IMG/VR virus record: IMGVR_UViG_3300045988_017255
Direction: 5' to 3' (one strand)
DNA from: a virus
Length of the DNA: 42,384 bases
Positions within the stretch are counted from its first letter, which is position 1; each line of letters begins with the position of its first letter. Of the stretch, positions 3,483-18,739 are shown in pieces. A program made the translations under genes and the position numbers. Below the pieces are notes generated by a model, which had not been told where the DNA came from, searched no databases, and was given only the letters and a program-made list of their open reading frames with translations.

Positions 3483-4676
3483 TCAATCGTCATGCAGAAG
3501 CACCGCCTTTTCTCCGGTAAACTTCTCCCACCGGTCAATAATGACATCGGCATACTTCGGATCGTACTCCATGCAGAAAGCGTGTCTGCCATTCTGCTCC
3601 GCTGCCATAATCGTTGTTCCAGATCCAGCGAACAGGTCGAGAACATTCTCACCCGGCTTACTGGAGCACTGCATCTGGTAATCAAACAGCTTAATCGGCT
3701 TCATGGTCGGATGCTCCGCAGACTTGACGGGCTTATCAAAATTCAGCACGGTTGTCTGCCTGCGGTTCTTGAAGAAGTAGTGCTTCTTGCCTTCCGTCCA
3801 TCCGTACAGGCAAGGTTCGTGCGCTTCCTCTTCAATCTCGCTCTCACCATACAGGCAAGGCTCATGTTTCCACTGGAAATCCTGTCTCCCCATAACAAGG
3901 GAGTTTTTCACCCAGATCAGGCACTGCCGGACACGCAGCATCGCATCTCTGCATGCGCCTCGGAAGTTATACCCCTCGCTGTCTGCGTGCCAGATGTAGA
4001 ACGGAGCACCGGGCTTCATGACCATCGCCGCATTGGAGAACGCATCCGTCAGGAAACGCCTGAAGGCCGTATCCTCCATATTGTCGTTCTTAATCTTCCC
4101 GGCGGTGCCCTGATAGTCCACATTGTACGGAGGATCGGTGAGAAGAAGATCGATTTGTGCCCCCCCCACAAGCTTTTGTACATCAGTCAGAGATGTACTG
4201 TCTCCGCACATCAAGCGATGGTCTCCAAGCTGATACACATCGCCCAGCTTGCTCTTCGGCTCTGCCGGTAAAACAGGATCGTAGTTGTCCTCTACCACTG
4301 ACGTGTCGAGTTCATCACGCAGACCCCAATCAAAGTCAAAAGCAGACAAGTCAAGCCCCGGCAGCTCATCAGCCAGCAGGTCAAAGTCCCAGTCGCTCTC
4401 GTTTCTCTTGTTATCCACCAGCCGCAGGGCGTTCACCTGTTCCGGTGTCAGATCGTCCACGCAGACGCAAGGTACTTCTTCCATGCCCAGCTTCTCTGCC
4501 GCCAGAGCGCGGCAGTGGCCGATTACAATCACACCGTCACGGTCAATCACAATCGGCTGCACAAAGCCGTATTGCTTGATGCTCTCCGCAACGTTTTTGA
4601 TTTGCCGTTTATCATGCTTTTTTGCGTTGCTGGCATACGGCACAATATCCGCAAGCCGCCGTTTTGTGATTTCCAT
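3483..4676 (-). CDS. ParB-like nuclease domain fused to a DNA methyltransferase (DPPY motif)
   Basis: The N-terminus (VPYASNAKKHD...QYGFVQPIVID) is ParB/Srx-like. LLLTDPPYNV is catalytic motif IV and DLFAGSGTT is the AdoMet motif I. ATG at 4676 has a GGAGGA SD upstream. Confidence 0.85.
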   Translation of the reverse strand: MEITKRRLADIVPYASNAKKHDKRQIKNVAESIKQYGFVQPIVIDRDGVIVIGHCRALAAEKLGMEEVPCVCVDDLTPEQVNALRLVDNKRNESDWDFDLLADELPGLDLSAFDFDWGLRDELDTSVVEDNYDPVLPAEPKSKLGDVYQLGDHRLMCGDSTSLTDVQKLVGGAQIDLLLTDPPYNVDYQGTAGKIKNDNMEDTAFRRFLTDAFSNAAMVMKPGAPFYIWHADSEGYNFRGACRDAMLRVRQCLIWVKNSLVMGRQDFQWKHEPCLYGESEIEEEAHEPCLYGWTEGKKHYFFKNRRQTTVLNFDKPVKSAEHPTMKPIKLFDYQMQCSSKPGENVLDLFAGSGTTIMAAEQNGRHAFCMEYDPKYADVIIDRWEKFTGEKAVLLHDD

Positions 4677-4796
4677 GCTTTCCTCCTTGTTTGTCACCAG
4701 CCCCCACCCCTTGGCTACAGTAACAGTCTTTACCCTCCCATGCGGGCCTCTTGGACCTCTCAAACATGGGCTACACACTATTTTTGATATTTTCTA

Positions 4797-4825
4797 TTGA
4801 CAGAATGAATCGGATAGTATATGAT
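4797..4825 (+). promoter_or_regulatory. Sigma-70-type promoter (TTGACA-N17-TATGAT) pointing away from the late genes
   Basis: TTGACA at 4797-4802, a 17-nt spacer, TATGAT at 4820-4825. No ORF follows. Confidence 0.55.
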
Positions 4826-4831
4826 TGACTT

Positions 4832-4948
4832 GTCCGATGCAGGAGGCGCTTGCATCGGTGGGAAATTCGATCCTATTTCCCGTGGATTGAAATGCTAAAA
4901 ACAGTATGCTGGGGAAAAAGAGCGGAGTTCCCGCTCTTTTTTCTTTTT
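4832..4948 (+). ncRNA. Candidate ~115-nt small RNA, antisense to the late-operon leader
   Basis: Consensus-like promoter upstream. Two perfect hairpins (CCGATGCA...TGCATCGG at about 4843-4867; GGGAAAT...ATTTCCC at about 4860-4882). Ends at an intrinsic terminator with a T-run at 4938-4948. Confidence 0.4.
4915..4948. terminator. Bidirectional intrinsic terminator
   Basis: Stem AGAGCGG / CCGCTCT (4919-4925 / 4931-4937), extended by A/T pairs. T-run on the plus side and TTTTT on the minus side. Confidence 0.7.
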
Positions 4949-5222
4949 ATTGTGCGGCATATGTCCCCTCTGGGTCACATCGTTGAGAGGTGCGAGGGGT
5001 CCTGTTGGTGCCGTGTGGGAGGTGCGACCTCCCGCCCCAGATCGCGGGGTGCAACGAGCGCACGGCATATAACAACAGCCCATAGGTTTCCCTACAGGCT
5101 GTTTGTGCCGGTACGCCCGTTTCCGAGTCCGCTTGCGCGGTGCGCCCAATACCGGCGGCGCATAGAAGGGAGGAAAAGTGATGATTGGGAAAACACGTGG
5201 ATGCCACTGTCCTATCATCCAC
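4915..5222 (-). ncRNA. Structured leader RNA of the late operon (GNRA-capped helices, ends at the terminator)
   Basis: No credible ORF. Nested helices, with three GNRA tetraloops (GCAA, GAAA, GAAA) only when read on the minus strand. A possible -10 TACAAT lies at 5230-5235. See findings. Confidence 0.45.
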
Positions 5223-5243
5223 TGTACCTATTGTAGCACATCA

Positions 5244-5708
5244 TTAAGTGGAATTTGTGCCATCTTTTGTGTAAAGACCACTGTATTTTGCCACATCCAT
5301 CAAAAATTGCTCCTTCCTCCGACTGAATGTCCTCTCGCTGATCCCCGGGATCACGATCCGATTACGGGCATACTTGTGCTTGCCTTGGCAGTTGCGCATA
5401 ATGCCATATATTAGCTGCCGCCGGATTGTATCGCTGCCGATATCTCTGCCGCAGCGGTCTATAGCGTATTCCACCGCCAGCATCTTCTGCGTCTCCGGCC
5501 ATCGCTCTATGGCGGCCAGCTGCTCCGCCTTGCTCTCGGCGGGTCTGCCAGCACCCGGTCCAGTTGGCATGCCCTCTGTGGCACTATGCGTCCCGTCCAA
5601 GATCTCCGCCCGGGCCTCGCGATACGCCCGCACCCGGCGCGGATACCCACGCACATAAGCAATGCACTCCAACCGCACATCATAAGGCAGTGTCGCCTTT
5701 TTGCTCAT
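5244..5708 (-). CDS. Putative late-gene transcription regulator (sigma-70 region-4-like HTH; RinA/ArpU-type position)
   Basis: 154 aa. It is the last gene before the packaging module. The C-terminal GISERTFSRRKEQFLMDVAKYSG resembles a region-4 HTH. Confidence 0.45.
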   Translation of the reverse strand: MSKKATLPYDVRLECIAYVRGYPRRVRAYREARAEILDGTHSATEGMPTGPGAGRPAESKAEQLAAIERWPETQKMLAVEYAIDRCGRDIGSDTIRRQLIYGIMRNCQGKHKYARNRIVIPGISERTFSRRKEQFLMDVAKYSGLYTKDGTNST

Positions 5709-17811: not shown

Positions 17812-17840
17812 TTGACAAATGCAACCGCCGCCGCTATTAT
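17812..17840 (+). promoter_or_regulatory. Sigma-70-type promoter (TTGACA-N17-TATTAT)
   Basis: TTGACA at 17812-17817 and TATTAT at 17835-17840. A ~190-nt leader follows before the 233-aa gene. Confidence 0.6.
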
Positions 17841-18037
17841 GTAAGTGTCAGCCAACAAAATATCGGCTATGGAACCCGCAAAAGAAGAAATTCTATGGGG
17901 GCTTGGTTTTTTGTTGCCTTTATGATTGCTCACAAGATGATTATAGCGTACATATTGTGTGTTGTAAAGTATCAAAACGACCGTTTTGTAAGTTTTGTCA
18001 GATTGCACAAAAAAACTATTCGTTTTTTGAGGGAAAC

Positions 18038-18739
18038 ATGATATTCGATATTGGCTTAATTCTCGCACGGCTTAAAGTCCCAAATAACCCGTATATCTAT
18101 TATCCAGAACAGTATGAGCAAGATTCATCGCAAAGCATTATTGCGGCAAACAATAGGTATGATTTAACTCGTTTTTCACAACACGAAGCGGCTGTTATCA
18201 GAGAAGTGTTATATACCGTTAAAACAAAGTACCCTGCGGAATATCAAGCGCTTGGGCTTGTAAATGAGGCGTATGTAATAACATATAAGCCGCGATATGT
18301 TCTTTTTGAAATTGCCGTAACAAAATATAGAAATTCGGCATCGTGTTTTGACAAGTTTGCGGTTGCTTATGCGTTTGCAAACAAAGGTTCTGATTTTGGG
18401 CTTGCCGCAATCGGTGCGTTTGAGGAAGCAATCGGAGAAATATCATTTACTGTTTTAGATAAATTCGCATCATTAAGTTTTGCAAAAATATGCAACGAGT
18501 TTTCAAAGTTATATGAGCAAGAATGGGAATTTGATAGTGCCATCTTTTGGTTAAAAAAAGCGATTTGCCGTGGCGGATTAAACAACAAATATTTTGCGGA
18601 AAGAATCAGCGAAATAGAGAAAAGAAAAATTGATATAATCAAAAACAATAAGCGCAAGCGCAACAGACGCATATCCGCTGAAAACGAAAAATTCGAATAT
18701 GACTTACACGCTGCCGCCTTGCAATTTATTCAGGAGTAA
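18038..18739 (+). CDS. Unknown 233-aa protein (AT-rich moron upstream of the repressor)
   Basis: ATG at 18038. Visibly AT-richer than its flanks. The stop lies 3 nt before the repressor-like gene. No motif recognised. The C-terminus is basic (KNNKRKRNRR). Confidence 0.65.
   Translation: MIFDIGLILARLKVPNNPYIYYPEQYEQDSSQSIIAANNRYDLTRFSQHEAAVIREVLYTVKTKYPAEYQALGLVNEAYVITYKPRYVLFEIAVTKYRNSASCFDKFAVAYAFANKGSDFGLAAIGAFEEAIGEISFTVLDKFASLSFAKICNEFSKLYEQEWEFDSAIFWLKKAICRGGLNNKYFAERISEIEKRKIDIIKNNKRKRNRRISAENEKFEYDLHAAALQFIQE

Follow-up and report, generated by a model that had tools for sequence, protein, structure and literature searches.

A probable phage small-RNA array that ends in an orphan abiF-motif hairpin, a candidate antitoxin mimic

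AbiF (Abi_2) toxins are among the commonest abortive-infection genes of gut Firmicutes. To our knowledge, the ways in which phages cope with AbiF are largely unknown, apart from escape mutations and one hairpin in the cos region of a lactococcal phage. In bacteria, the abiF motif RNA sits just upstream of abiF genes, which encode Abi_2 HEPN RNases, and the RNA and the protein form a type III toxin-antitoxin pair. The C. difficile RNA RCd22, which has two abiF motifs and a terminator, binds AbiF directly and neutralises it in cis and in trans; mutations that break its stem abolish neutralisation and compensatory stem changes retain activity (PMC12373285). The antitoxin RNA blocks the HEPN active site of AbiF, and AbiF has been proposed as the ancestor of Cas13 (PMC12737573, PMC13064643). 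Phage PhiTE escapes ToxIN by means of a pseudo-ToxI RNA (PMC3475682), and in lactococcal phage sk1 the cos region is described as holding a hairpin that inhibits AbiF (PMC13064643). Here we describe an abiF-motif hairpin on the minus strand of a 42,384-nucleotide (nt) stretch of viral DNA (IMG/VR virus record IMGVR_UViG_3300045988_017255), which was analysed over its whole length and which we call the window. The hairpin (4958-5005) lies in the non-coding stretch between a putative regulator gene and the packaging genes, and this region is very probably a non-coding array that is driven by a promoter and ends in an orphan abiF-motif RNA as its last module. The abiF motif and antitoxin mimicry by phages are already known; an orphan abiF cassette in phage transfer RNA (tRNA) arrays, common in gut phages, seems to be undescribed, as the literature that we searched held no description of phage-borne orphan abiF motifs (Zilberzwige-Tal et al. 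2025, Cell, lay outside that search).

The hairpin is 48 nt long and reads ACAGGAC-CCCCUC-G-CAC-CUCUCAACGAU-GUG-ACCCA-GAGGGG-ACAU. It shares with the abiF motif RNA (RF03085; AbiFr/RCd22) the helix, bulge and loop architecture (6 base pairs (bp), 1 nt, 3 bp, an 11-nt loop, 3 bp, a 5-6-nt 3' bulge and 6 bp), a loop core, CCUCUCAACGAUG, that is identical to the Rfam consensus over 13 nt, the ACAGGA flank, the NCCCA bulge and the ACAU tail. When we ran cmscan, all 37 positions of the Rfam model aligned at 4964-4999 (27.1 bits, E 0.016). Our own covariance model of the hairpin, built from 38 variants, scored the window hairpin at 69.2 bits (E 4e-20) and found no other copy in the window. The outer stem had been paired by eye in an earlier, sequence-only reading of this DNA (the original prediction) as a CCCCUC/GAGGGG helix (4994-4999 with 4965-4970), and we found that all six of its pairs have changed on both sides across 61 distinct sequences, a result reached by 0 of 500 shuffles. 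The covariation of the stem in phage hairpins matches the stem dependence and compensatory rescue of RCd22. The original prediction had also allowed for a non-coding RNA (ncRNA) that it could not name, and for this one module, although not for the region as a whole, the name is abiF-motif RNA.

The hairpin is an orphan, antitoxin-like RNA module: an abiF RNA carried without its toxin. There is no abiF gene immediately downstream of it, where the next gene encodes a ParB_N + N6_N4 methylase. A hidden Markov model (HMM) made from 120 Abi_2 proteins matched none of the six-frame open reading frames (ORFs) of the window at E<=10, and Pfam detected no Abi_2 on any window ORF of >=250 amino acids (aa). 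An Abi_2 gene elsewhere in the phage was rejected after the six-frame HMM search, Pfam, and PADLOC on candidate ORFs, among them the 306-aa ORF described below, gave none. Unlike the bacterial motif, the window hairpin has neither an abiF gene nor a U-run directly attached to it, it stands inside a tRNA/ncRNA array behind a long leader, and it scores below the Rfam cut-off. The stem is followed by the tail ACAUAUGCCGCAC, and a separate terminator stem begins about 17 nt further on. An intrinsic terminator also follows in RCd22; however, RCd22 has two motifs and the window has one. In another viral locus (L088, 3341-3441), two tandem abiF-like hairpins (29.6 and 68.7 bits) are present, as in RCd22, and no Abi_2 was detected within that 11.6-kilobase (kb) locus.

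To see how the hairpin is distributed, we collected loci with the 16-mer ACCTCTCAACGATGTG, which turned up in at least 120 contigs of IMG/VR and also in at least 120 species genomes, and scored their context with an Abi_2 HMM built from 120 homologues; the census figures hold among the matches listed. Approximately 88 genome loci carry the hairpin and in 39 of them it is directly upstream of Abi_2, including loci of gut Clostridia (such as Lachnospiraceae and Ruminococcaceae), whose AbiF proteins are possible targets. Only four viral loci have this complete arrangement (L035, L067, L079 and L087; for the L035 protein, Pfam gives an Abi_2 match with E 6e-57), whereas at least 112-118 viral copies are orphans without Abi_2. 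The orphans have 32 distinct stems, which are fully paired in 102 of 118 copies, occur in at least four different upstream contexts, and share the 5' flank ACAG(G/A)A and the 3' bulge NCCCA with AbiF-linked copies. In contrast, a U-run follows the hairpin in 40 of the 43 AbiF-linked copies (genome and viral) and in 6 of 112 viral orphans. As far as the sequences tell, the orphan state is a conserved phage feature and not a relic. The hairpins could instead be neutral debris of recombination with an AbiF locus, or of a lost phage abiF, riding as passengers in a recombination-prone tRNA array. The four complete viral systems, the highly mosaic array with a fresh deletion in the window (see below), and the dispensability of the hairpin among close relatives would all suit such a remnant. 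Nevertheless, the number of orphans, the variety of their upstream contexts, the 32 compensated stem versions and the conserved bulge and flanks argue against it, and the consistent replacement of the U-run by an AUAU/GC junction looks like domestication rather than decay. We therefore consider a neutral remnant very unlikely.

The position of the orphans relative to tRNAs is also regular. Among the matches listed, ARAGORN calls a tRNA (Thr, Gln, Trp, Gly, Ser and others) a few nt behind 27 orphans, and most of the remaining orphans are followed by tRNA-like CCA-ending elements that are not called as tRNAs; the hairpin is mostly about 4-5 nt ahead of the tRNA 5' end. This tight and consistent spacing, together with unrelated structured modules in the same array and loop-variant subfamilies that keep the stem, bulge and CUCU...AU, is what one would expect if the hairpin were a processing, stability or protein-binding signal of the tRNA/ncRNA array, which might recruit an RNase or chaperone of host or phage and from which AbiF antitoxins might derive, or which they might mimic. 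However, many arrays with the same tRNAs have no hairpin, so tRNA maturation does not need it, and AbiF is the only documented partner of the motif; a partner other than AbiF is, in our view, quite unlikely.

We also searched with the loop left out of account. Of the 121 viral hairpins that share this stem and bulge, 42 differ at the centre of the loop, for example with CUCUUAAAAAU and CUCUUUGUAAU. The loop-variant subfamily comprises L322, L327, L330, L334, L358, L372 and about 35 other viral loci, with the loops CUCUUAAAAAU, CUCUUUGUAAU, CUCUUGGCAAU and CUCUCGACGAU. In the six loci that we read, the hairpin is the final element before a different conserved late-gene leader, ACAGGYGAGGCGAAAGCCGGG...GGCCAGUGGUGGGAGGCC. 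Complementarity between the loop and downstream sequence was considered for these variants and judged to be chance, being present in L327 and L372 and absent from L322 and L358.

To place the hairpin within its region, we fetched 80 viral loci by way of the 154-aa regulator protein (77-99 % identity), which gave 56 distinct variants. In 68 phages whose regulator has this level of identity, the promoter and a leader of about 150 nt are constant and the modules behind them are mosaic: tRNAs, tRNA-like scaffolds, a ~90-nt CCA-ending element, a module that we call domain C, the abiF hairpin and others, every one of which begins after an AUAU|GC junction. The hairpin with the canonical loop, as at 4958-5005, is found in 13 of the 56 distinct arrays only, and modules are optional among phages whose packaging genes are near-identical. 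The original prediction had taken the region for one leader of about 300 nt or a riboswitch, a view that does not survive the different cassette sets behind the same regulator, promoter and 5' leader. An Rfam scan of the window at gathering level gave no match and so no known riboswitch or cis-regulatory family; at E<=10, over 4600-5400, the only matches were abiF and terminator-like small RNAs. We propose that 5238-4915 (minus strand) would be transcribed as one promoter-driven unit belonging to a family of phage small-RNA cassette arrays, of which the window phage carries a minimal version.

Several other cassettes in these arrays are unusual. Odd tRNA-like cassettes follow the leader in relatives that include L243, L256, L281, L242 and L302. 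In L243, a tRNA scaffold has normal acceptor, D and T arms and lacks the anticodon arm; in L256, the anticodon arm is swapped for an insert, and inserts in such cassettes are 30-40 nt long. Some tRNA-like cassettes of relatives have anticodon loops of 8-9 nt. A covarying element of about 90 nt, GCGGCAUAGGUGCCCCGUAAGGGG...GCAAUGCCGCACCA, is recognised by neither ARAGORN nor Rfam. In another phage group, a skipping-rope RNA (RF02924, 45.7 bits, above the cut-off) lies at 11637-11731 of L018, approximately 100 nt downstream of an abiF-like hairpin.

In the window, the array ends in an intrinsic terminator (4915-4948), which the original prediction had pointed out and which looks real (z -4.2 on the minus strand). 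It is bidirectional, consisting of an A-tract, the stem GAGCGG-GAACU-CCGCUC (4915-4941) and a U-tract, and a pattern scan of the plus strand also flags it, with 15 pairs. The terminator block is present in 20 loci besides the window and is missing in relatives such as L014; in the 20 relatives the stem is constant and the loop variable. In the closest relatives (L247/L064 and L242), the hairpin is followed by a tRNA-like cassette of about 90 nt, GCGGCAUAGG...GCAAUGCCGCACAA, and then by the terminator. A tRNA-like end followed by the terminator is found in 21 loci; in contrast, a hairpin joined directly to CGCACAAU and the terminator is found, among the fetched loci, in the window only. The junction, UAUGC/CGCACAAU (4949-4961, minus strand), has ATGC repeats at both ends, as read from the sequences. 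Since the relatives keep the cassette and the direct join is unique to the window, the window is a deletion derivative that has lost the tRNA-like cassette. By accident or not, this deletion recreates the canonical small-RNA layout of RCd22, in which an intrinsic terminator comes after the abiF motif.

On the other strand, a near-consensus promoter, TTGACA-17-TATGAT (4797-4825, 11/12), faces the array. Two hairpins and the shared terminator follow it, a candidate small RNA of about 117 nt (4832-4948, z -4.6). The whole plus-strand block (4797-4948) is conserved in 20 relatives and missing in others.

What might an orphan antitoxin RNA do in a phage? We tentatively favour the reading that the hairpin RNA is a phage-borne antitoxin mimic that keeps host- or prophage-encoded AbiF off during infection, a strong possibility that stops short of being probable. 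The RNA would be synthesised while the phage infects or is induced. In relatives, enzymes that process tRNAs would free it from the array, its place beside tRNAs suggesting RNase P and RNase Z, whereas the window phage would produce it as a small RNA that ends at the terminator; the RNA would then act in trans on AbiF-type toxins so that abortive infection fails. Loss of the U-run should allow transcription to continue into downstream cassettes, which we count in favour of a mimic, and the same reading draws support from the trans activity of the motif and the need for its stem, the selection pattern of the orphans, the presence of AbiF systems with this type of hairpin in gut Clostridia and the precedents of PhiTE and sk1.

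These and other known systems differ from the window in instructive ways. Camara-Wilpert and colleagues reportedly described, in 2023, RNA anti-CRISPRs (Racrs), solitary repeat units of phages that mimic the repeats of CRISPR RNAs. In Racrs, as in the window hairpin, a phage carries the RNA that partners a defence nuclease as an orphan copy, and because AbiF is the proposed ancestor of Cas13, a mimic of its antitoxin would be the corresponding trick against the ancestral system; however, Racrs subvert the assembly of the CRISPR effector, whereas the window RNA would just keep the toxin off. Pseudo-ToxI of PhiTE (PMC3475682) is likewise a type III antitoxin RNA carried by a phage without the toxin, with the same proposed logic in trans. 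In contrast to the window feature, a single unrelated hairpin with a HEPN toxin as its target, ToxI is a tandem 36-nt repeat processed by ToxN. Mimicry by PhiTE was shown in escape-mutant experiments, whereas the window feature is natural, widespread and known from sequence alone. The sk1 cos hairpin (Rince 2000 and Zilberzwige-Tal 2025, cited in PMC13064643) is also a phage hairpin just upstream of packaging genes, and reportedly inhibits AbiF; the passage in PMC13064643 that treats it reports it without resemblance to the AbiF ncRNA, whereas the window hairpin is a near-exact copy of the motif.

Several observations weigh against an antitoxin mimic. The window hairpin scores 27.1 bits, which is under the gathering cut-off of RF03085 (37); however, AbiF-linked hairpins that we tested miss it too (L035 has no gathering-level match and L067 scores 27.8 bits), so the missed cut-off does not set the window hairpin apart from true antitoxin RNAs. 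We infer AbiF binding from similarity alone. Because 42 of the 121 loop centres are altered, not all phage copies can bind alike and some may act otherwise. The hairpin is optional, and its occurrence in only 13 of the 56 arrays indicates that it is dispensable for the phage cycle, which fits an accessory anti-defence role but also a neutral passenger. Finally, a place behind a presumed late activator suggests late expression, which is late for an anti-defence factor; the label 'late regulator' itself comes from one weak PHROG match.

A broader version of the antitoxin-mimic proposal, possible but doubtful, is that gut phages made the AbiF antitoxin RNA into a mobile tRNA-array cassette that is released by tRNA-processing enzymes as a trans-acting RNA anti-defence factor. 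The neighbouring modules, domain C and the tRNA scaffolds whose anticodon arm is absent or replaced, might then be further decoys against RNA-targeting toxins, and the locus an 'anti-defence RNA island'. If the hairpin is a mimic, it would be a natural, widespread, RNA-only countermeasure that adds an RNA decoy to anti-defence strategies, beside pseudo-ToxI and RNA anti-CRISPRs, and it would offer a reason why phage tRNA clusters hold odd non-tRNA modules. Even if it is not, the arrays contain several covarying RNA modules without an Rfam family, in hundreds of uncultured gut phages.

Upstream of the hairpin, domain C (5006-5067, minus strand) is an independent cassette with a 59-nt, four-helix, cloverleaf-like module (5009-5067) closed by a 7-bp helix. 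Three of its helices, UGCCGUG/CACGGCA, CCCC/GGGG and GGGAGG/CCUCCC, had been listed in the original prediction and are supported by comparison with relatives; a short fourth helix is added here. The pairing holds in 97 % of cells across 22 distinct homologues, as compared to 35-50 % in slid controls, and 9 of 20 pairs have changed on both sides, a value reached in 0 of 500 shuffles. Domain C has five sequence types and occurs both with and without the abiF-like hairpin. It resembles tRNAs only in its four-helix layout, its 7-bp closing helix, its start after AUAU|GC, as in the tRNA cassettes of relatives, and its A-CCA end (the window copy ends ...CACGGC-A-CCA). That domain C is a tRNA was rejected: ARAGORN called none, whether in its standard, its intron or its mitochondrial mode, and there was no Rfam tRNA match over 4600-5400 at E<=10. 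ARAGORN also found no tRNA in the whole window, and no Rfam family matched domain C. We likewise rejected it as a degenerate second abiF motif in the manner of RCd22, despite the common UCGCACCUC, as the window has one copy of the hairpin model, and with the filters off the next-best match in the window reached 11 bits.

At the other end of the array, the original prediction had noted a lone -10-like TACAAT (5230-5235) without a -35, and this description holds; a TG at 5237-5238 makes it an extended -10 promoter, TGCTACAAT (5230-5238, minus strand), which overlaps the 3' end of the 154-aa regulator gene. None of the 56 distinct relatives departs from the pattern TGnTAnAAT, which occurs in three versions (TGCTACAAT, TGGTAAAAT and TGCTAAAAT), and transcription would be predicted to start near 5223. 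The constant 5' leader (5072-5222, minus strand, about 150 nt) is seen in all regulator-linked relatives, whichever cassettes come next. It comprises a hairpin, GUGGAUG/CAUCCAC (5197-5222), a U-rich stretch with CCUCC (5165-5177), a helix, GCCGGUAU/GUACCGGC (5105-5156), that encloses swappable GNRA mini-hairpins, and, as its last element, a 12-bp hairpin capped by GAAA (5075-5102).

Each of the helices listed in the original prediction, and the TACAAT and terminator, is present in the sequence where it had been placed, and we found that comparison with relatives treats them differently. The 12-bp hairpin is intact in all relatives, with one pair changed on both sides and loops of GAAA, GGAA, GAGA, UGAA or GUUAU. 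The long-range helix GCCGGU/ACCGGC is missing from the single-sequence minimum free energy (MFE) structure, but RNAalifold, given 17 relatives, has it in the consensus, lengthened to 8 bp; the changes across these relatives are one-sided and wobble-compatible, with one break, and the helix is plausible, not proven. The two small tetraloop hairpins that it encloses are kept as a type and not as sequences: the segment is swapped in relatives for another mini-hairpin, with GAAA, GGAA, GAGA or GCAA loops, all GNRA. Covariation, which had been proposed as a check, is thus strong for the 5009-5067 module and the CCCCUC/GAGGGG hairpin and weak for the constant leader (RNAalifold consensus, 17 relatives). 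The CCUCC pyrimidine stretch (5165-5180, minus strand) is kept in three otherwise divergent leader versions. Read from the plus strand, it gives GGAGG, a ribosome-binding site for an antisense ORF (5178-5414; 78 aa long in the window) whose start codon is 6-8 nt further on and which overlaps the regulator gene, and the stretch is either an RNA motif or the start of an antisense gene.

The lambda late leader consists of the promoter PR', the 6S RNA and the terminator tR', with antitermination by Q. The window resembles it in having a promoter, a short non-coding transcript and a terminator ahead of late/packaging genes, beside a putative late regulator; it differs in that a Q homologue is missing, close relatives can do without the terminator and most of the transcript, and the small-RNA modules are independent. 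If the region worked like lambda PR'-6S-tR' or HK022 put, it would be a cis-acting leader of the late operon, an attenuator or antitermination site that polymerase modified by the 154-aa regulator reads through into the packaging genes. The conserved promoter at the end of the regulator gene, the structured leader that is constant in all relatives and the strong terminator between leader and first late ORF in the window are consistent with such a leader, and RCd22, too, works in cis, by premature termination (PMC12373285). However, the terminator block is confined to 20 loci and the window and is missing, for example, in L014, the hairpin and domain C are optional cassettes, phage hairpins lack the U-run that makes the bacterial motif terminator-like, and the regulator matches no antiterminator family. 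The lambda analogy drawn in the original prediction therefore has no comparative backing, and since the terminator and the 3' modules are optional, a lambda-like model is unsupported for the whole region; it could still hold for the constant leader (5072-5222). We regard a cis-acting leader as unlikely, but as an explanation to be taken seriously.

That the region acts at the level of RNA, from the minus strand and without coding, was also part of the original prediction, and our results agree. For a 336-nt stretch, the minus strand has an MFE of -141.8 kcal/mol as compared to -109.9 +/- 5.4 for dinucleotide shuffles (z -5.9, 0/100), and the plus strand has a z of -3.7. When the 5' 150 nt (the constant leader) were folded alone, the minus strand had a z of -3.7 and the plus strand one of -1.2, an asymmetry that supports a minus-strand RNA, and GNRA loops are kept on the minus strand only. 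The mechanical ORFs of the region (minus strand, 107 and 91 aa; plus strand, 128 aa) are not credible genes: they traverse the terminator and cassette junctions that vary, and relatives (L244, L292) have 1-nt indels within them, so we rejected the region as coding.

A DNA-level element would be the remaining explanation: a cos/pac or recombination site of the adjacent packaging module, with RNA structures that are incidental. The region is just upstream of the packaging genes, and a passage in PMC13064643 identifies the sk1 region that counteracts AbiF as the cos site of that phage. However, folding is strand-asymmetric, with the GNRA loops on one strand, covariation in domain C and the hairpin is compatible with G-U pairs, and the modules are optional despite near-identical packaging genes. 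When we judged a cos site by contig ends, it was rejected, as the ends of IMG/VR contigs fall outside the region and outside a second element at 4691-4778. That element, further downstream, is conserved and the better candidate for a DNA site, and a DNA-level role for the array is, on this evidence, extremely unlikely.

The element at 4691-4778 (minus strand, about 85 nt) is just upstream of the methylase ATG and consists of GUGUAGCCC, a variable hairpin and GGGAGGGUAAAGACUGUUACUGUAGCCAAGGGGUGGGGGCUGGUGACAAAC. It is very strongly conserved: of the fetched loci, 147 have its core, in 112 variants, and among them are phages whose regulator and first late gene are different ones. The pairs UGCUAU/GUAGCA and UGUUAC/GUGACA covary, and Rfam has no match to the element. 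The element is a candidate for the true late leader or operator, for a cos/pac site, or for another RNA.

The window looks like the genome of a temperate siphovirus-type phage of human gut origin. On the minus strand, the gene order downward from 5708 is the 154-aa protein (5244-5708, stop codon 5244-5246), the non-coding stretch, the ParB_N + N6/N4 methylase (ATG at 4676, the first gene after the array), the small terminase, the large terminase and the portal. The 154-aa protein matches phrog_248, 'transcriptional activator', weakly (E 7e-5) and nothing else; no Pfam or NCBIfam family matched it. The nearest GenBank phage records are uncultured faecal contigs, and only one GenBank phage record, the uncultured MT835513, shares the RNA region; as the closest cultured terminase has 44 % identity, we left the phage host unassigned. 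The plus strand carries an integrase and HTH genes at approximately 18-21 kb. At the head of this lysogeny module, the 306-aa ORF (17819-18739, plus strand) has no match in Pfam, PADLOC or NCBIfam, and could be an uncharacterised moron or defence gene.

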